Of a stretch of 10,963 bases of DNA, positions 1 through 10,552 are shown one piece after another. The notes under the pieces are model-generated. The model was not told where the DNA came from, made no database searches, and saw only the letters and a list, made by a program, of their open reading frames with translations. Numbering within the stretch: the stretch's first letter is position 1; every line of letters begins with the position of its first letter. Position numbers and translations under genes: made by a program. The DNA comes from a virus. Location: the UHGV virus genome UHGV-0234540. The stretch is one strand, 5' to 3'.

Positions 1-126
1 CGACATAATCTGAATCTGAGACAACATCTGGCAAGGCTGGGACGGAAGTCGCTGTCGTTCTCAAAATCGGTGGAGCTGCATGACAAAGTCATCGGGCATT
101 ATCTGAACATAAAACACTATCAATAA
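1..126 (+). CDS. 3' end of an ORF entering from upstream (41 codons), product unknown
   Basis: Only + frame 1 is open from position 1 and runs to TAA at 124-126; the other two + frames hit stops within 12 nt. No motif recognised. Confidence 0.25.
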
Positions 127-357
127 GTTGGAGTCATTACCGGGAAACCGCGATATCGTTAATAACGATGTCGTCTTTATTTATCTTGTCATAATAAAAA
201 TGCTTCCCGGAAAAAGTTTTAATAAATGACATTTCGTTCTCCACTTTATATGCGCTGCACCGCGCTGAATTTTGGGAAAAGGAAGCCCTCGCCATCCGGC
301 GATTATTGAGTCAATTACGTTTCAATAGATGCCCCCGCAGGGGCGGTTAGTTTCTCC

Positions 358-446
358 ACAAAACAGAGAAGAACACCTGCGGTGGCAGCCGCCCGGATGG
401 ATTGGGTTATGAGCCCGTCGTCCGGTGATGCTCTTCTCTGTTTTGT
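358..446. repeat. Long hairpin: perfect 15-bp inverted repeat ACAAAACAGAGAAGA (358-372) / TCTTCTCTGTTTTGT (432-446), extended by CACC (374-377) / GGTG (424-427), enclosing a ~46-nt GC-rich loop
   Basis: Arms read directly and checked as exact reverse complements. Lies in a 330-700 GC-rich block where no reading frame on either strand looks protein-like. Confidence 0.5.
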
Positions 447-770
447 AAAAAGAGCGGTGCCAGCCGGAAGCAAGTGTACAAACTGGTACCGCCAAAGCAG
501 TGGCTGTTGTGGTGCCGGGTGCCTCCCGGTGCCTGGCGAAGGTTGCACACCAGGCGGGTGGGTATCCACAGAAGGTCGACTGTCAGCCTCAACCTTAACC
601 CGCGTGCGCTGAGCCGCATTCACCACAACGCTAAGGATTCTCTCTGGTTGAAAATACTTAGCTGTTATGTGCCTGCTTTTAGCCACATCAGGCGAGGTGG
701 ACCTGGTTATTCCCCAACAACAAGGATTCGGTTAATCTTGATACCCCCAATAACATGGTGATTATTTAAG

Positions 771-1274
771 ATGGACAAATTTGATAGAAGTGCACAAAGG
801 CAGTTGTTACAAATACTGTATGATGCTCATCCTTATGAAATTTCTGATGATGCGTTGCAGTCTGTTCGTGACGCATTTGGAGATGATAATGTCCTAATTT
901 CGAACTTAATTTATCTCGAAGAACATGGCTTGATTAAGAATGCTCTTGATTATTACTTGGATGGCATAAATATAAATATTCCTGAATTAAGAATTACTAA
1001 AGATGGAATTGATTTCATTCGTGATGATGGAGGTCTTAAAGCTATTCTTGGGATTATGACAATAAGATTGCATGATGAGACTCTCTGTGAACTTGAACGT
1101 ATCATCAATAGTTCTACTTCTGCCACGACTGAAGATAAGAAGAAATTACTTTCTCAGCTTCGAACGCTTCCTGCCGACGCCATAAAACAGCTGACGATTC
1201 GATTACTTGGTCAGGGGCTTGACCATCTGCCGGACGTATTTCACGTAATTCAAAAAGCCCTCCATTCTCTGTAA
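771..1274 (+). CDS. Hypothetical protein (167 aa), AT-rich moron; possible small winged-helix-type protein (tentative resemblance to DUF2513-like phage proteins, from memory)
   Basis: Clean ORF with ATG at 771 and GGTGA 9 nt upstream. First two-thirds is markedly AT-rich relative to its neighbours. Protein-like composition. Oriented convergently to the repressor gene and followed by an intrinsic terminator. Confidence 0.6.
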   Translation: MDKFDRSAQRQLLQILYDAHPYEISDDALQSVRDAFGDDNVLISNLIYLEEHGLIKNALDYYLDGININIPELRITKDGIDFIRDDGGLKAILGIMTIRLHDETLCELERIINSSTSATTEDKKKLLSQLRTLPADAIKQLTIRLLGQGLDHLPDVFHVIQKALHSL

Positions 1275-1641: not shown

Positions 1642-2268
1642 TTAGAGTTCGTATTGAACTCCTTTGACTACACCAATGATAAGGCAATTACCATTGATAG
1701 GGATGTTGGGATACCGAGGATTTAATGGCACTAAAAACTTTTGAGGGCCATCGATGACTAATTTTTTTACTGTAGCTTCGTTTGTTCCATCAAGTCGAGC
1801 GATGACTATTTTTCCATGACGAGGTTCTGCATCTGGATCTACAATCACTGTTGCGCCTTCTGGTATTGTTGGGAGGCCATTAGGGTTAGTCATGGAGTCA
1901 CCTTTAACCTCTAATGCAAATGAGTTATCACCAATCTTTAATGATGTATCTACCCACTTGTCCACTTCACTAAACACTTCTGCTGCCCTGCACTCAGTAA
2001 ACTGCCCAGCCTGAACCCACGATATTACAGGAACTCTGCGCATGTTTGTGACGAGTTTGCCTTCAAACTCAGCACCATAAAGAATGTAATCTATTGACGT
2101 ATTGAAGAACTTCGCTAATTTCGAAAGTGCCTCCCCACCAGGGGTATTGATGTCTTTCTCCCAGTACCCCACAGCAACGTCGCTTACTCCACAAAATTTA
2201 CCCAATTCTTTCTGGGACGTTCTGGTAACTCTTCTCAGAGCTTTTATACGCTGACCAACCGTTTCCAT
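1642..2268 (-). CDS. cI: Prophage repressor, cI/LexA-like (N-terminal XRE-type HTH + C-terminal S24 peptidase autocleavage domain)
   Basis: 208-aa ORF. N-terminal HTH (QKELGKFCGVSDVAVGYWEKD). Probable Ala-Gly cleavage site in WVQAGQF. Catalytic Ser in the KGDSM motif and Lys in ATVKKLV, as in LexA and lambda cI. Divergent from a cro-like gene. Confidence 0.9.
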   Translation of the reverse strand: METVGQRIKALRRVTRTSQKELGKFCGVSDVAVGYWEKDINTPGGEALSKLAKFFNTSIDYILYGAEFEGKLVTNMRRVPVISWVQAGQFTECRAAEVFSEVDKWVDTSLKIGDNSFALEVKGDSMTNPNGLPTIPEGATVIVDPDAEPRHGKIVIARLDGTNEATVKKLVIDGPQKFLVPLNPRYPNIPINGNCLIIGVVKGVQYEL

Positions 2269-2290: not shown

Positions 2291-2353
2291 CTAAGTAATC
2301 TTAGTTTTTATTGACCAAAGATAGATTTGTAATTAGCATCTAATAAAACTTAG
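2291..2353. promoter_or_regulatory. OR-like immunity control region: operator palindromes CTAAGTAATCTTAG (2291-2304) and CTAATAAAACTTAG (2340-2353); candidate PR -35 TTGACC (2311-2316) and -10 TAGCAT (2334-2339)
   Basis: Two 14-bp sites of the form CTAAG/T-N4-CTTAG in the 97-bp gap between divergent cI and cro. A -35/-10 pair with 17-bp spacing points toward cro. GGAGG sits 4 nt before the cro ATG. Confidence 0.45.
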
Positions 2354-2365
2354 TTTGGAGGGCGT

Positions 2366-2566
2366 ATGACAACTGACGATATCGAAAGCTACTTCGGCAG
2401 TATTGAGAAAGTTGCTGCTTTTTTCGGCATAACAACTGAAGCCGTTTATCAGTGGCGAAACCGTCCGGGCCAGTTAATTCCAAAAGGACGTGCAGCAGAA
2501 GCTGCATATAGAACTTGCGGACGGTTGCCATTTAAACCTGAGCTTTATGAAAAATCTAATGGATAA
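2366..2566 (+). CDS. cro: Cro-like transcriptional regulator (66 aa)
   Basis: Small ORF divergent from the repressor, with an SD. Motif FG...V...FGIT.EAVYQW matches the P22/434-type Cro pattern recalled from memory. Confidence 0.8.
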   Translation: MTTDDIESYFGSIEKVAAFFGITTEAVYQWRNRPGQLIPKGRAAEAAYRTCGRLPFKPELYEKSNG

Positions 2567-3496: not shown

Positions 3497-3516
3497 AGGT
3501 CGGTCATGAGCACTAA
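3337..3516 (+). CDS. Cryptic small ORF (59 codons, TTG start) or the true 3' portion of a frameshifted 3158 gene
   Basis: Frame 1 is open 3310-3516 and translates to a balanced sequence ([59 protein letters not shown]). Consensus AAGGAG (3323-3328) lies 8 nt upstream of TTG 3337. The stop at 3514-3516 overlaps the next gene's ATG at 3506. Not in the ORF track because it has no ATG. Confidence 0.4.
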
Positions 3517-4447
3517 ATTAACCGGCTATGTATGGGATGGTTGCGCTGCATCAGGCATGAAGTTATCCAGCGTGGCAATTATGGCCCGCCTGGCTGATTT
3601 CAGTAATGACGAAGGTGTGTGCTGGCCATCAATTGAAACCATTGCCCGTCAGATTGGCGCGGGGATGAGTACCGTCAGAACGGCTATCGCACGGCTGGAA
3701 GCAGAAGGCTGGTTAACGCGTAAGGCGCGTCGCCAGGGTAACCGCAATGCGTCGAATGTTTATCAGCTTAACGTTGCGAAGCTTCAGGCAGCGGCATTTT
3801 CTCAACTGTCAGATTCTGACCCGTCAAAATCTGACGCATCAAAATCTGACCCGTCAAAATTTGATGCGTCGAAATCTGGCAAAAAAGCGGGTTTTCACCC
3901 GTCAGAATCTGGCGGGGATCCGTCAGTAAAATCAAAACATGATCCGTCAGATAAAAAACCTTCTCGTCCGGACGCTTCGCAACCGGACACGCAGACGGCT
4001 GAACAGGATTTTTTAACTCGCCATCCTGATGCGGTTGTATTCAGCCCTAAAAAGCGCCAGTGGGGGACGCAGGATGATTTGACCTGCGCACAGTGGCTCT
4101 GGAAAAAAATCATCGCCCTGTACGAGCAGGCTGCCGAATGTGACGGCGAGGTGGTTCGTCCCAAAGAACCGAACTGGACAGCCTGGGCAAACGAAATTCG
4201 CCTGATGTGTGTGCAGGATGGTCGTACTCACAAACAAATCTGCGAGATGTACAGCCGCGTCAGCCGCGATCCGTTCTGGTGCCGTAACGTGCTCAGCCCG
4301 TCGAAGCTGCGGGAAAAATGGGATGAGCTTTCCCTGCGCTTATCGCCGTCCGTCAGCACGTACACCGAAAAACGCGAAGACCCGTACTTCAAATCCAGTT
4401 ACGACAACGTGGACTACAGCCAGATCCCGGCAGGATTCAGGGGGTGA
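3506..4447 (+). CDS. Replication initiation protein, lambda O-like (N-terminal HTH DNA-binding domain, repeat-encoded linker, C-terminal domain)
   Basis: 313-aa ORF at the O position after cII. N-terminal HTH-like segment (SIETIARQIGAGMSTVRTAIARLEAEGWL). Internal DNA iterons encode the DPSKSDASKSDPSKFDASKS repeat. SD GAGG 6 nt upstream. Confidence 0.7.
   Translation: MSTKLTGYVWDGCAASGMKLSSVAIMARLADFSNDEGVCWPSIETIARQIGAGMSTVRTAIARLEAEGWLTRKARRQGNRNASNVYQLNVAKLQAAAFSQLSDSDPSKSDASKSDPSKFDASKSGKKAGFHPSESGGDPSVKSKHDPSDKKPSRPDASQPDTQTAEQDFLTRHPDAVVFSPKKRQWGTQDDLTCAQWLWKKIIALYEQAAECDGEVVRPKEPNWTAWANEIRLMCVQDGRTHKQICEMYSRVSRDPFWCRNVLSPSKLREKWDELSLRLSPSVSTYTEKREDPYFKSSYDNVDYSQIPAGFRG
3813..3960. repeat. 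Candidate origin of replication: iterons inside the initiator gene
   Basis: Four tandem ~15-bp units (CCGTCAAAATCTGAC, GCATCAAAATCTGAC, CCGTCAAAATTTGAT, GCGTCGAAATCTGGC; 3821-3880) plus further CCGTCAG-core copies near 3898, 3919 and 3943, ending in an A-rich stretch (3945-3958). Two GATC sites lie in the distal copies. Same layout as ori-lambda inside gene O. Confidence 0.6.
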
Positions 4448-4449
4448 TC

Positions 4450-4938
4450 ATGAGTCTTTTGAATGACGTTCAGAAATTCATTGAAGCCCATCCGGGGTGT
4501 ACTTCCGGAGACATTGCGGATGCTTTTGCAGGTTACTCACGGCAGCGCGTACTGCAGTCAGCAAGCAAGTTACGTCAGAGTGGGCCTGTGGCTCACCGTT
4601 GTGAAGGGGATACACGCAGACATTTCCCGCGCCTGACTGAGAGAGCGCGGGAGCCGGAACCACAACCAGTTCGTGAAACCAGACCTGTGCGCAATTTCTA
4701 TGTCGGCACTAACGATCCCCGGGTGATTTTGTGCCTGACCCGCCAGGCTGAAGAACTGGAGTCAAGAGGCTTATTTCGTCGTGCTGCAACCGTGTGGATG
4801 GCGGCATTCCGTGAAAGCCACTCCCAGCCAGAACGAAACAATTTTCTGGCGCATCGTGAGCGGTGCTTACGGAAAAGCAGCAAGCGCGCTGCATCGGGTG
4901 AAGAGTGGTATCTGTCAGGGAATTACGTGGGGGCTTAA
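4450..4938 (+). CDS. PerC/Pch-like transcriptional regulator with N-terminal winged-helix-like domain
   Basis: The C-terminal segment ELESRGLFRRAATVWMAAFRES matches the PerC-family signature (..RGLWRRAA..W) recalled from memory. ATG 4450 is preferred over GTG 4444 (AGGGGG 6 nt upstream). Its stop overlaps the next start (TAATG). Confidence 0.5.
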   Translation: MSLLNDVQKFIEAHPGCTSGDIADAFAGYSRQRVLQSASKLRQSGPVAHRCEGDTRRHFPRLTERAREPEPQPVRETRPVRNFYVGTNDPRVILCLTRQAEELESRGLFRRAATVWMAAFRESHSQPERNNFLAHRERCLRKSSKRAASGEEWYLSGNYVGA

Positions 4939-5591
4939 TGAGTAATAAATATTGCCGGGCGCTGGTGGAGCTGCGGAACAAACCAGCCCATGAACTGAAG
5001 GAAGTGGGCGATCAGTGGCGCACGCCGGACAACATTTTCTGGGGAATTAACACCCTGTTTGGCCCGTTTGTTCTGGATCTGTTCACTGACGGTGATAACG
5101 CCAAATGTGCTGCGTATTACACGGCGGAAGACAACGCGCTGGCGCATGACTGGTCAGAACGTCTTGCGGAGCTTAAAGGGGCTGCCTTTGGTAATCCCCC
5201 ATACAGCCGCGCCAGTCAGCATGAGGGGCAATACATCACCGGCATGCGTTACATCATGAAACATGCCAGTGCCATGCGTGATAAGGGTGGGCGCTATGTT
5301 TTCCTGATCAAAGCTGCCACCAGCGAAGTGTGGTGGCCGGAAGATGCGGACCATATTGCTTTTATTCGCGGGCGTATTGGTTTTGAACTGCCTGCCTGGT
5401 TTATCCCGAAGGATGAGAAGCAGGTGCCGACAGGCGCTTTCTTCGCTGGTGCTATTGCTGTTTTCGATAAGACCTGGAAGGGACCGGCAATCAGCTACAT
5501 CGGGCGCGATGAACTTGAGGCATGTGGTGAAGCGTTTCTGGCGCAGGTTCGCCAGCAGGCGGAAAAACTGGTCAGGGAGATGGCGGCATGA
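4938..5591 (+). CDS. Phage Dam-family DNA N6-adenine methyltransferase (orphan)
   Basis: NPPY catalytic motif (AAFGNPPYS). N-terminal region typical of phage Dam-family enzymes. Start ATG 4938 overlaps the upstream stop. No adjacent restriction endonuclease. Confidence 0.8.
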   Translation: MSNKYCRALVELRNKPAHELKEVGDQWRTPDNIFWGINTLFGPFVLDLFTDGDNAKCAAYYTAEDNALAHDWSERLAELKGAAFGNPPYSRASQHEGQYITGMRYIMKHASAMRDKGGRYVFLIKAATSEVWWPEDADHIAFIRGRIGFELPAWFIPKDEKQVPTGAFFAGAIAVFDKTWKGPAISYIGRDELEACGEAFLAQVRQQAEKLVREMAA

Positions 5592-5914
5592 CGACGTTAA
5601 CTCAATGCCAGCAGCAGGTGCTGGATATGCTGATTTCTTACCAGAAAGAGCGTGGCTTTCCGCCAACCAATCAGGAGGTGGCAACCATGCTGGGATACCG
5701 TTCAGTGAATGCAGCGGTAGAGCATCTTCGTGCACTGGAGAAAAAAGGCGTCATCACGATAAAGCGTGGCGTGGCCCGGGGGATAACGCTTCATACCGCG
5801 GTGAAGGACGACGACAGCGAGGCGGTCGGGATTATCCGCGCACTGCTTGCCGGTGAGGAAAACGCCAGGCTGCGTGCAGCCCACTGGTTACATGAGAGAG
5901 GCCTGAAAGTATGA
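5588..5914 (+). CDS. LexA N-terminal DNA-binding-domain homologue lacking the S24 peptidase domain (108 aa)
   Basis: Residues 4-68 align with E. coli LexA residues ~4-68 (LTQCQQQVLDMLISYQKERGFPPTNQEVATMLGYRSVNAAVEHLRALEKKGVI versus LexA [53 protein letters not shown]). No Ala-Gly site or Ser/Lys peptidase motifs follow. ATGA overlaps at both ends. Confidence 0.75.
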   Translation: MTTLTQCQQQVLDMLISYQKERGFPPTNQEVATMLGYRSVNAAVEHLRALEKKGVITIKRGVARGITLHTAVKDDDSEAVGIIRALLAGEENARLRAAHWLHERGLKV

Positions 5915-6300
5915 AGCTGATCTTGCCTTTCCCGCCCAGCGTGAACACGTACTGGCGACACCCCAACAAAGGGGCGTTTGCTGGTAAGAGCCTGATAAGC
6001 GAGGCGGGGCGAAAATTTCAGAGCGCGGCGTGTGCAGCAATAGTTGAGCAGTTACGTCGTCTGCCGAAACCAACGTCGGCACCTGCTTCAGTGGAGATCG
6101 TGTTGTTTCCTCCGGATAACCGGATCCGCGATCTGGACAACTATAACAAGGCGCTGTTTGACGCCCTGACCCACGCGGGTGTGTGGGAAGACGACAGACA
6201 GGTGAAAAGAATGCTGGTGGAGTGGGGACCGGTTATCCCGAAAGGGAAGGTCGAGATCACTATCAGTAAGTATGAGAAACCGGCGGGTGCAGCCGCCTGA
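5911..6300 (+). CDS. rusA: Holliday junction resolvase RusA
   Basis: 129-aa ORF. Motif DLDNYNKALFDALTHAGVWEDDRQV matches the RusA catalytic core (DLDN...DAL...DD.QV). SD GAGAGAGG upstream. Nin-region position. Confidence 0.85.
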   Translation: MKLILPFPPSVNTYWRHPNKGAFAGKSLISEAGRKFQSAACAAIVEQLRRLPKPTSAPASVEIVLFPPDNRIRDLDNYNKALFDALTHAGVWEDDRQVKRMLVEWGPVIPKGKVEITISKYEKPAGAAA

Positions 6301-7130: not shown

Positions 7131-8126
7131 GTGACCGTGAGAGCACTACTGACCCCTGAAATTGCCCCGCGTATGGGGATCGTATTGTTCAGGCCAGGTT
7201 CAGAGTTGATGCCCCTGTTTATGCAGGGGCGTGTCCTGCTGGAGCCTGAGCCGGAACGTTATTCATCTTTCGCCAGTGGTGCAGTTCCGGCGGCATCACA
7301 ACCGCTGGCGGATGATCCTGCCGTTCGGGCCGTGTTCCGCAATGAGGCAGTGATCCGTCGTGCTGGTGGCGTGGAATGTCTTGAAAGCTGGTTACTTCGT
7401 GAAAAAGGCTGCCAGTGGCCTCATTCCGACTGGCACAGCGAGAACATGACCACAATGCGACACGCTCCGGGCGCAATCCGTCTGTGCTGGCACTGCGATA
7501 ACCAGCTGCGCGATCAGTTCACGGAACGGCTGGAATCAATGGCAACGGATAACTGTGCCCGCTGGGTGTTGTCTGTTGTGCGTCGGGATCTCGGTTTTGA
7601 TGACAGTCACGTTGTGACAATGCCGGAACTGTGCTGGTGGCTGATTCGTAATGACCTGGCGGATGCCTTACCGGAAAGTGCAGCCCGTAAGGCACTGAGA
7701 TTACCGAAGCCTGTTGTGCCGTCTGTCTCCCGGGAAAGTGACCTTGTGCCTTCGGTTCCTGCCACCAGCATCATCCAGGATAAGGCGAAAAAGGTGCTGG
7801 CGCTGAAAGTGGATCCGGAGTCGCCGGAGTCTTTTATGTTACGCCCAAAACGTCGCCGCTGGGTTAATGAAAAGTACACGCGCTGGGTTAAGACACAGCC
7901 GTGTGCATGTTGTGGAAAGCCCGCTGATGATCCCCACCACCTGATAGGTCACGGTCAGGGGGGAATGGGAACAAAAGCGCATGACCTTTTTGTGTTGCCT
8001 TTGTGCAGAAAGCATCACGACGAGCTGCATGCGGATACCGTGGCATTTGAAGAGAAGTATGGCTCCCAGCTGGAGCTGATATTTCGTTTTATCGATCGTG
8101 CGCTGGCAATTGGCGTGCTGGCGTAA
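7131..8126 (+). CDS. DUF968 / Ref-like protein with C-terminal HNH-type nuclease motif
   Basis: C-terminus CACCGKPADDPHHLIGHGQGGMGTKAHDLFVLPLCRKHHDELH is a Cys/His HNH signature like the P1 Ref family (from memory). GTG start at 7131 immediately after the upstream stop; start is uncertain. Confidence 0.65.
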   Translation: MTVRALLTPEIAPRMGIVLFRPGSELMPLFMQGRVLLEPEPERYSSFASGAVPAASQPLADDPAVRAVFRNEAVIRRAGGVECLESWLLREKGCQWPHSDWHSENMTTMRHAPGAIRLCWHCDNQLRDQFTERLESMATDNCARWVLSVVRRDLGFDDSHVVTMPELCWWLIRNDLADALPESAARKALRLPKPVVPSVSRESDLVPSVPATSIIQDKAKKVLALKVDPESPESFMLRPKRRRWVNEKYTRWVKTQPCACCGKPADDPHHLIGHGQGGMGTKAHDLFVLPLCRKHHDELHADTVAFEEKYGSQLELIFRFIDRALAIGVLA

Positions 8127-8139
8127 GTGGAGAACGAGC

Positions 8140-8892
8140 ATGAACCTTGAAGCCTTACCAAAATATTACTCCCCAAAATCTCCAAAATTGAGTGATGACG
8201 CACCGGCGACAGGCTCGGGTGGTTTAACAATTACAGATGTGATGGCTGCGCAGGGGATGGTGCAGTCGAAAGCACCGCTTGGGTTTGCCTTATTCCTGGC
8301 AAAAGTTGGTGTTCAGGATCCTCAGTTTGCGATTGAAGGTCTGCTCAATTACGCGATGGCACTGGATAACCCGACATTGAACAAATTGAGTGAAGAAACC
8401 CGGTTACAGATCATCCCTTACCTTGTGAATTTTGCCTTTGCTGATTATTCCAGGTCTGCGGCAAGTAAGGCTCGCTGTGAGCATTGTGCTGGTACTGGAT
8501 TTCATAATGTATTGCGCGAAGTGGTGAAACACTCCAGAAGCGGGGAATCTGTTATCAAGGAAGAGTGGGTGAAGGAACTGTGTCAGCATTGTCATGGTAA
8601 GGGAGAAGTCAGCACAGCGTGCAGAGGGTGTAAGGGTAAAGGTATTGTCCTGGATGAAAAAAGAACCCGGCTTCATGGCACGCCTGTTTATAAGGTTTGT
8701 GGGCGTTGCAATGGAAACCGGTTTAGCCGTTTACCAACCACACTGGCGCGGCTTCATGTCCAGAAGCTGGTACCAGACCTGACGGATTATCAGTGGTACA
8801 AAGGATATGCAGATGTCATTGATAAACTGGTTACAAAGTGCTGGCAGGAAGAAGCATATGCAGAGATACAATTGAGAAAGGTGACAAGATAA
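8140..8892 (+). CDS. Q: Late-gene antitermination protein Q (zinc-finger type)
   Basis: Last gene before the candidate late promoter and terminator and the lysis genes. Four CxxC motifs (CEHCAGTG, CQHCHGKG, CRGCKGKG, CGRCNGNR). ATG 8140 with GTGGAG SD is preferred over the longer ORF start at 8098. Confidence 0.7.
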   Translation: MNLEALPKYYSPKSPKLSDDAPATGSGGLTITDVMAAQGMVQSKAPLGFALFLAKVGVQDPQFAIEGLLNYAMALDNPTLNKLSEETRLQIIPYLVNFAFADYSRSAASKARCEHCAGTGFHNVLREVVKHSRSGESVIKEEWVKELCQHCHGKGEVSTACRGCKGKGIVLDEKRTRLHGTPVYKVCGRCNGNRFSRLPTTLARLHVQKLVPDLTDYQWYKGYADVIDKLVTKCWQEEAYAEIQLRKVTR

Positions 8893-9499: not shown

Positions 9500-10552
9500 A
9501 TGAAAAATACTGTAAAAATAAACAGTGTTGATTTAATCAACGCTGATTGCCTGCATTTTATTCAGTCCCTGCCTGATGATTCCATTGACCTGATTGTTAC
9601 CGATCCGCCGTACTTCAAGGTGAAACCCAACGGCTGGGACAATCAGTGGAAAGGGGACGAAGATTACCTTAAGTGGCTGGACCACTGTCTGGCCCAGTTC
9701 TGGCGGGTGTTAAAACCTGCCGGAAGCCTTTACCTGTTCTGTGGGCATCGCCTGGCATCTGATATTGAGATCATGATGCGTGAACGTTTCAACGTGCTTA
9801 ACCATATCATCTGGGCGAAGCCGTCCGGACGTTGGAATGGGTGTAATAAAGAAAGTCTGCGCGCATATTTTCCTGCCACAGAGCGCGTTCTGTTTGCTGA
9901 ACATTACCAGGGGCCATATCGCGGCAAAAGTGACGGCTATGCGGCAAAAGAAAGGGAACTCAAACAGCACATAATGGCACCGCTGATATCGTATTTCAGG
10001 GATGCTCGTGCCGAACTGGGTATAACGGCAAAACAAATTGCCGAAGCCACAGGTAAGAAAAATATGGTTTCCCACTGGTTTGGTGCCAGTCAGTGGCAGT
10101 TGCCGAATGAGGCTGACTATCGGAAGTTACAGGCACTGTTTTCCCGTATAGCGGCAGAGAAGTTTCAGGAACAACAACTGGAACAACCACACCACCAGCT
10201 GGTGGCATCTTATGATTCACTGAATCGCAAATATTCTGAATTGCTGGATGAGTTTAAATCTCTCCGGCGCTATTTCTCCGTATCAGTCTCCGTGCCTTAT
10301 ACCGATGTCTGGATGCATAAACCCGTTCAGTTCTACCCGGGTAAACATCCGTGTGAGAAACCGGCGGATATGCTCAGGCAAATAATCAATGCCAGTAGTC
10401 GACCTGGTGATCTGGTTGCTGATTTTTTTATGGGATCCGGTTCCACAATAAAAGCAGCAATGGCGCTGGGGCGTCGGGCCTTAGGTGTTGAGCTTGAGTC
10501 AGAGCGGTTTAACCAGACAGTGAAAGAGATAAACGAGCTGGTGGGGAAATAA
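9500..10552 (+). CDS. Orphan beta-class DNA methyltransferase (N6-adenine or N4-cytosine type)
   Basis: Motif IV DPPY (LIVTDPPYF) near the N-terminus and motif I FFMGSGST near the C-terminus give the beta-class order. A central insertion (residues ~150-250) contains an HTH-like stretch ([13 protein letters not shown]). No cognate endonuclease adjacent. Confidence 0.85.
9508..9527. promoter_or_regulatory. SOS-box-like palindrome TACTGTAAAAATAAACAGTG (CTGT-N8-ACAG) within codons 3-9 of the methyltransferase
   Basis: Matches the E. coli LexA box consensus TACTGT-(AT)4-ACAGTA at 11 of 12 arm positions with an all-A/T spacer. It is the only CTGT-N8-ACAG found in the window by manual scan. Confidence 0.35.

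Follow-up and report, generated by a model that had tools for sequence, protein, structure and literature searches.

The gene yfdN, lying within a window of 10,963 nucleotides (the whole stretch of DNA analysed here, from UHGV virus genome UHGV-0234540), encodes a two-domain protein in which a predicted winged helix is followed by a helical core of the PerC type. Taking its position, architecture and relatives jointly, we consider the best explanation to be, by a modest balance of probability, that yfdN is an accessory early gene of a lambdoid prophage and that its product modulates the transcription of silenced, horizontally acquired DNA. The features on which this reading is built are collected in Table 1.

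Table 1. Parts of yfdN and neighbouring features in the window.
Feature	Position	Strand	Remarks
yfdN CDS	4450-4938	+	162 aa plus stop; the ORF from the alternative GTG at 4444 gives 164 aa (RefSeq)
N-terminal winged helix-turn-helix domain (predicted)	4450-4632	+	aa 1-61; AF2 and Foldseek, weak HMM matches
Pro/Glu/Arg-rich interdomain linker	4633-4716	+	aa 62-89; predicted disordered
Three-helix PerC/ANR-type core	4717-4893	+	aa 90-148; Pfam PerC match aa 98-149
Motif RGLFRRAATVW	4765-4797	+	aa 106-116; end of helix 1, turn and start of helix 2 of the core
C-terminal tail	4894-4935	+	aa 149-162; motif W-x-L-(S/A)-G-x-(Y/F)-x-G; predicted disordered
cI-like repressor	1642-2268	-	HTH_3 and Peptidase_S24
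pR-like sigma-70 promoter consensus match	2311-2339	+	TTGACC-17-TAGCAT, between the cI-like gene and cro
cro	2366-2566		P22_Cro
cII/CP76, then DUF4222 ORF	between cro and initiator		
O-like replication initiator	3506-4447	+	HTH_36 N-terminus; PHROG 391, E 8e-136; lambda-O-like C-terminal domain
Iterons	3808-3916		in the middle of the O-like initiator gene
Dam N6-adenine methyltransferase	4938-5591	+	Pfam Dam PF05869, E 9.6e-46
LexA DNA-binding-domain protein	5588-5914		
RusA	5911-6300		
KilA-N, then DUF968/HNH	between RusA and Q		
Q antiterminator	8098-8892		

The open reading frame spans positions 4444 to 4938 of the plus strand. Its ATG at 4450 is preceded by AGGGGG and lies 3 nt past the TGA stop of the upstream initiator gene, and at the other end its TAA stop (4936-4938) overlaps the dam ATG (4938) in the junction TAATG. 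Pairwise comparisons with the homologues of K-12, phage Ayreon, Shigella and Citrobacter gave dN/dS ratios of 0.11-0.35 and, because of these ratios, yfdN is at the level of sequence a gene under purifying selection and no chance reading frame. The same values argue against the view that yfdN has lost its function and is decaying as a passenger in cryptic prophages, which we regard as barely credible. It is true that databases contain many frameshifted or truncated variants (P0087 and P0101, for example, and numerous partial clusters). In the cryptic prophage CPS-53 (KpLE1), where K-12 yfdN (b2357) resides, the neighbours are the same as in the window, an O-like gene before yfdN and a methyltransferase gene after it, but these two genes, yfdO and yfdM, are truncated remnants, whereas the initiator and Dam genes flanking yfdN in the window are intact. 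Against decay, both protein domains persist across genera in homologues with as little as about 25% identity, and the gene stands in the phage genome records of SfV, mEp460 and Ayreon.

In the window lies the early region of a lambdoid prophage of the SfV/mEp460 type. A preliminary description of this DNA had placed the gene inside an early operon, and the ORF map, the junctions and the neighbouring families all agree with that placement, with cI, cro and cII upstream and Q downstream. At every junction from the initiator to RusA, stop and start codons overlap or abut. The transcript carrying yfdN probably starts at the pR-like match, an assignment made by position, since the promoter scan as a whole was not enriched over shuffles. 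The overlapping stop and start further suggest that yfdN and dam are simply co-translated and do not form a separately regulated unit. Rfam at gathering thresholds and ARAGORN returned nothing on the window, and the PADLOC defence models gave no match.

The identity of the gene is clear. YfdN of the window shares 96% amino acid identity with E. coli K-12 YfdN over 164 aa, the two being separated by 7 substitutions, and SfV orf40 is the equivalent gene in that phage. At the DNA level, yfdN is 100% identical to a gene of E. coli MS1679, to which RefSeq gives the name 'PerC family transcriptional regulator', and 95-98% identical to the copies in SfV, mEp460 and the Stx2c phages. The protein matches PHROG 1324 ('transcriptional activator') over its full length (aa 1-161, E 1.3e-76), and both full-length similarity and two-domain layout make it a member of the YfdN family. 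This family is widespread. Of 5426 complete E. coli genomes, 2674 contain yfdN-like DNA, some with as many as four copies, and so do 49 phage records, among them SfV, mEp460, Ayreon, phiSTEC1575-Stx2k and 15 Stx2c-converting phages. A protein-database search returned thousands of near-identical proteins of the same name, besides relatives from Salmonella, Citrobacter and Hafnia.

In order to describe the architecture of the protein, an AlphaFold2 (AF2) model was built on 22 homologues (mean pLDDT 76). Its N-terminal domain consists of helices at residues 3-13, 19-25 and 31-44 and a beta-hairpin at 47-52/55-60, with pLDDT of about 80-90, and this topology of H1-H2-H3 and beta-hairpin wing superposes on solved winged helices. 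When the PDB was searched with Foldseek, the N-terminal part matched winged-helix DNA-binding domains only, from the ArsR/SmtB, MarR/MepR/SlyA, BlaI/MecI, PerR, DsrD and SSV1 F-93 families (entries 6j05, 3cuo, 3eco, 1smt, 1sd6 and 1tbx). These matches cover 56-69 columns at an rmsd of 1.6-3 A and a probability of 1.00; the E-values, 2e-3 to 0.1, are modest owing to the small domain. Against viral models, Foldseek gave generic winged-helix matches only. By sequence, the window protein has no Pfam HTH match at E <= 1, and its likeness to HTH proteins is confined to sub-threshold matches (the MarR-type PHROG 1687 at 2.9e-4, and BilQ at 4.9e-3). HTH profiles were also matched by some of its 29 aligned two-domain relatives, namely Penicillinase_R by four, MarR_2 by three and HTH_24 by two, and weak matches to PaaX and F-93_WHD were seen among the relatives as well. 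A search of PDB sequences with YfdN gave nothing meaningful, the best hits being ClpC N-domains at E >= 0.3. Model topology, Foldseek matches and the weak HMM matches in relatives together support the additional winged-helix-like domain that had been suggested at the N-terminus.

The linker is modelled with pLDDT < 50 at residues 63-84; in the family alignments this stretch is poorly conserved, variable and rich in indels. The tail likewise has pLDDT < 50, at residues 150-162. Its residue G157 hardly varies across the 29 divergent aligned members, which also keep the motif L-A/S-G-x-Y/F-x-G at identities as low as about 25%. The tail is possibly a docking peptide.

The core itself is formed by helices at residues 90-105, 109-122 and 126-148, with pLDDT > 90 in the AF2 model. 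Its score for Pfam PerC (PF06069) is 32.9 bits (E 7.9e-8), above the gathering score of 22.6, and the match takes in profile positions 5-56 out of 90; this profile search upholds the PerC-family assignment first proposed from the motif RGLFRRAATVW. The assignment is correct; it was also already known and already annotated. YfdN shares with PerC and PchA the helical core A-x2-LE-x-(K/R)G-x-(Y/F)RRAA-x2-W ... ER ... R-x2-C-x2-K. The PerC core motif within it, LE-x-(K/R)G-x-(Y/F)RRAA-x2-W and then ER...R-x2-C-x2-K, is found in YfdN as LESRGLFRRAATVW ... ERNNFLAHRERCLRK. For this comparison we aligned perC from pMAR2 of EPEC E2348/69 and pchA, pchD and pchE from O157 Sakai. The residues invariant across YfdN, PerC, PchA and PchE include A100, L103, E104, G107, R110, R111, A112 and A113, and further W116, R129, R136, C139 and K142. 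Two of these, R111 and A112, do not vary among the 29 divergent aligned members either, and A113 is kept in 90% or more of them.

The likeness to PerC extends over the core and stops there. YfdN aligns only to the first 45-52 residues of PerC and the Pch proteins, with identities of 35% to PerC and 39% to PchA over 44-46 aa, and of 37% to PchE over 52 aa. In the alignment, the C-terminal 35-40 aa of PerC/Pch (Pfam positions 57-90) have no counterpart in YfdN, and the segment DN-x2-DIKQAV...EMG...F/W-RNY of PerC, PchA and PchE is missing from it. YfdN, at 162 aa, thus neither covers all 90 positions of PF06069 nor has the single-domain size of about 90-105 aa. PerC and the Pch proteins are single-domain proteins of 89-104 aa, whereas YfdN has an added winged helix and linker. 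The genetic contexts differ too. perC lies in the plasmid per operon (pEAF/pMAR2) and pchA is a stand-alone gene in the late region of a lambdoid prophage, while yfdN stands in a phage early operon. PchD (ECs1388) belongs to the island SpLE1 and PchE (ECs1588) to the satellite-like element Sp7, neither of them in a lambdoid early operon. We considered PchD and PchE as possible long forms of the YfdN type and rejected them, both being 89-90 aa in length and encoded in other elements; none of PchA to PchE is of the long type, all having 89-104 aa. A four-way alignment puts the terminal aromatic-x-NY of PerC/Pch on the GNY of YfdN, which is a hint only.

An exhaustive HMMER scan of 1.84 billion representatives yielded 97 matches. 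Some of these are full-length relatives with two domains, the most divergent at about 25% identity, and in their alignment both domains and the tail motif persist. Pfam PerC was matched by all 29 aligned two-domain relatives, and the NCBIfam model ANR_neg_reg (NF033650) by 19 of the 29 at E <= 0.01, the best at 4e-9. The YfdN of the window itself scores 19 bits against this model, for which the cut-off is 32 (E 9.6e-4 over aa 96-129). Because the relatives reach 4e-9, these matches indicate that the YfdN core is homologous to ANR, yet YfdN is no member of the ANR family. ANR proteins such as Aar and Rnr have three helices and less than 10 kDa, without a DNA-binding domain (PMC4983702); in YfdN, by comparison, the three-helix module common to both is part of a protein of 162 aa with a winged helix. 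The authors of the EcCIMP1 study (PMC11773190) had independently remarked that PerC and ANR overlap. Aar/ANR anti-activators bind AraC-family regulators and H-NS (PMC4983702, PMC5570504), and Pch activates LEE1 by displacing H-NS and so relieving silencing (PMC4764244). Because of these two activities, the shared three-helix module looks, by analogy, like a protein-interaction unit of regulators that act on silenced, horizontally acquired DNA, and YfdN may act in a manner similar to the relief of H-NS silencing by Pch.

Given this family, the question arises whether YfdN is a functional equivalent of PerC and Pch that would activate LEE1 (ler), so that early prophage transcription would switch on LEE type III secretion, a coupling of the kind raised in the preliminary description. 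PerC membership in Pfam speaks for it, as do the residues G107, R110, R111, A112, A113 and W116 common to YfdN, PerC, PchA and PchE. The gene also meets LEE in some hosts. Stx2c phages of O157 carry a copy 97.3% identical to that of the window, and in 15 Stx2c-converting phage records and Stx2a_1447 (from an O157:H7 strain) the copies are 96.5-97.3% identical. Uhlich et al., who termed yfdN 'the K12 unique PerC homologue', removed it from their K-12 ler-lacZ reporter strain before testing Pch proteins (PMC5931665). However, the second half of PerC is missing from YfdN, and in the first half the identity, over some 45 aa, is 35-39%. Its distribution does not follow LEE: the 4.9-kb escU-ler segment is present in 697 of the 5426 complete E. 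coli genomes (13%), against about half (2674) for yfdN, and yfdN is also carried by LEE-negative K-12 and, as relatives, by Kosakonia, Enterobacter and Citrobacter. The active Pch genes, moreover, stand alone in the late prophage region and not in an early operon.

The short family members weigh further against LEE activation. PchD has no effect on ler and PchE one of less than 2-fold (PMC5931665), and the PerC-like EcCIMP1_025 silences LEE1 (PMC11773190). These three have the same core as YfdN, yet are short (89-90 aa) and single-domain; PchD and PchE are thus nearer to PerC in architecture and already fail. PchE represses csgD/curli. It has also been reported as a regulator of flagella (PMC7369912). 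From the behaviour of PchD, PchE and EcCIMP1_025 it follows that PerC-family membership does not predict ler activation. Since half of PerC is missing, the gene is distributed beyond LEE and the family is no predictor, LEE activation is unlikely as a general role of YfdN, and we hold its equivalence to PerC/Pch as a LEE1 activator to be improbable.

A second line of evidence on function comes from the place of the gene. Related loci were found with a 13-member subset of the divergent alignment. Those from Shigella, Citrobacter, Enterobacter and Kosakonia all have the yfdN-like gene, with 18-81% identity in the single domains, immediately behind the initiator, and the same slot is seen in MS1679, K-12, Ayreon and loci L006-L017 (four genera). 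In every yfdN-carrying locus examined, the junction with the initiator overlaps or leaves 3 nt, and the slot is kept even where the initiator has an N-terminal domain of another type, as it is in relatives as distant as about 25% identity. On the 3' side of the yfdN-like gene stands either a methyltransferase gene, its family differing between loci, or the LexA-like gene itself, and in most loci RusA comes after. The methyltransferases at this site belong to different families, Dam, D12-type, C5 and N6_N4.

In lambda, the C-terminal domain of O is its P-binding part. The initiator of the window has a C-terminal domain homologous to that of lambda O (40% identical to O of lambda and phage 21), and no homologue of P, DnaC or DnaB was found in the window. 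Together with the constant place of yfdN directly after the initiator, this would suit a replication accessory in the slot of lambda P, which would bind the O-like initiator and help to recruit the host DnaB helicase. The divergence of YfdN also tracks that of the initiator C-terminal domain, but physical linkage of neighbouring DNA would account for such co-variation just as well. Prophage vB_EcoS-733R5 and phage HannyBb share this initiator type, their C-terminal domain and tail being 59-66% identical throughout, but both lack a yfdN-like gene behind the initiator; in the full 733R5 record no yfdN-like gene was found and no tblastn match was better than E = 0.5. Initiators carry the conserved tail ...VDYSxIPxGFRG both in loci that have yfdN next and in loci that lack it there. 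Homology to helicase loaders was not detected by Pfam, PHROG, PDB sequence or Foldseek searches, and the likeness of YfdN to lambda P is one of position, with no detectable similarity of sequence or fold. We therefore doubt strongly that YfdN occupies the P slot in function. Since 733R5 has the same initiator type (66% identical in the C-terminal domain) without yfdN, the gene is accessory and dispensable for that initiator type, and we describe it as an accessory early gene of lambdoid prophages of the SfV/mEp460/CPS-53 type.

The same loci bear on the possibility that YfdN is a local, C-protein-like controller of the orphan DNA methyltransferase or of downstream early genes, binding in or near its own operon. 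A methyltransferase gene comes directly after the yfdN-like gene in the window and in loci L008 and L013-L017, the annotation of SfV places a predicted dam promoter within orf40, and the predicted winged helix of YfdN is consistent with such a role. But L006, L009 and phage Ayreon have no methylase, the LexA-like gene following directly, and 733R5 has a methylase without yfdN. The overlap of stop and start codons, which suggests simple co-translation, is a further point against this control, and we rate it as quite unlikely.

Returning to the reading that we favour, in which YfdN is a transcriptional modulator and yfdN an accessory early gene, we propose the following course of events. yfdN would be transcribed from the putative pR, and YfdN would be made upon inactivation of the repressor, or constitutively in decayed prophages that lack repression. 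Fold and homology suggest that the winged helix could tether the protein to DNA, and that the PerC/ANR-type module could contact nucleoid-associated proteins or transcription regulators. The latter contact, with H-NS or with a regulator, is proposed from what characterised relatives do, Pch displacing H-NS and Aar binding both H-NS and AraC-family regulators. YfdN would in this way modulate transcription of silenced, horizontally acquired DNA, of phage or host, and would be a regulatory add-on, neither an essential replication factor nor a LEE-specific one.

There is an outside chance of something more specific, namely that proteins with a winged helix, a PerC/ANR module and a docking peptide make up a distinct subfamily that remodels H-NS-silenced or AraC-regulated transcription at induction, or else serves as a replication adaptor docking on the initiator. 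If the remodelling reading were true, SfV-like and Stx2c-type prophages would alter host and phage transcription at induction, and in EHEC O157 the induction of Stx2c phages would be linked to the control of LEE, curli or motility.

These findings also bear on the name of the protein. Its label 'transcriptional activator' derives solely from homology to half of PerC, and YfdN is better described as a two-domain regulator, under a name that leaves sign and target unstated. The practical value of our analysis is limited, the gene being already labelled by RefSeq and in the literature. What is added to the existing annotation is that only the core of PerC is present, that this core is shared with ANR, that an unannotated winged helix precedes it, and that yfdN keeps a conserved slot after an initiator type for which it is dispensable. 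In the literature we found no functional study of YfdN, the reports there being the precautionary deletion mentioned above and hits in overexpression or expression screens. In nitric-oxide data from CFT073, yfdN is among the strongly changed genes.

Within the gene for the O-like initiator we found a cluster of iterons, followed by an A-rich stretch. The repeats are translated: in the initiator protein they form its repetitive SDPSKSDASKSD linker. On this analysis, the iteron region is most likely the replication origin of the phage, lying within its own initiator gene as in lambda. The window initiator (4400-4447) and the initiators of the related loci L008, L009, L013-L015, L017 and L019-L021 share the C-terminal peptide ...(Y/F)x(N/G/D)VDYSx(I/P)PxGFR(G/S/T)-COOH. 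Proteins with this ending differ in their N-terminal and central domains, and the ending is kept with or without a yfdN-like gene next to the initiator. A host replication protein may use this peptide as its docking motif.

Features of the prophage early region and its flanks (window positions)
Feature	Position	Strand	Details
IS1, terminal 141 bp	1-141		100% identity to plasmid IS1 copies
Truncated ORF	137-295	-	Adjoins IS1 end
Non-coding stretch, ~430 nt	~330-760	-	Conservation and folding
167-aa ORF	771-1274	+	Between structured non-coding region and cI-like repressor
Iterons, five to six, 15-bp	3808-3916		GTCAAAATCTGAC(C/G)C; inside O-like gene 3506-4447
Dam-type methyltransferase	4938-5591	+	Early operon
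LexA DNA-binding-domain protein, 108 aa	5588-5914	+	PF01726, E 2.9e-19
Q antiterminator	8098-8892		
N6_N4 methyltransferase	9500-10552	+	PF01555; between Q antiterminator and holin

The conserved non-coding stretch contains no credible ORF along its ~430 nt, and is kept at 74-98% identity in SfIV, mEp460, PhiR49_1 and Stx2c phages. Compared with shuffled sequence, its minus strand folded far better (z = -5.4), with a perfect stem of ~25 bp in the predicted structure; the corresponding value for the plus strand was z = -1.9. In Rfam, the minus strand gave a sub-threshold match to the sRNA STnc100 at 508-627 (35.6 bits, E 1e-5; the gathering score is 47). The stretch is probably a structured RNA carried by the leftward (pL-side) transcript. 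The adjacent 167-aa ORF had no match in Pfam or PADLOC. In MS1679, an E. coli genome with an identical yfdN copy, the corresponding position is taken by a BRCT-domain gene, so it looks like a variable cargo slot.

At the left end, thousands of plasmids carry an IS1 identical to the window terminus, labelled 'IS1 family transposase'. Homology to SfV-like phages begins at exactly position 142, and therefore IS1 is inserted in the left arm of the prophage, beside the truncated ORF.

The prophage encodes two DNA methyltransferases. The early-operon enzyme is swapped for other families (D12-type, C5 and N6_N4) in related loci; the second occupies the slot between Q and the holin, which is the location of stx in Stx phages. 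The LexA-like protein consists of the LexA DNA-binding domain only, without the S24 autocleavage domain. Produced from the early operon, a putative non-cleavable binder of this LexA-like kind could interfere at SOS boxes. Its gene is kept in most related loci and, where RusA is present, lies directly upstream of it.
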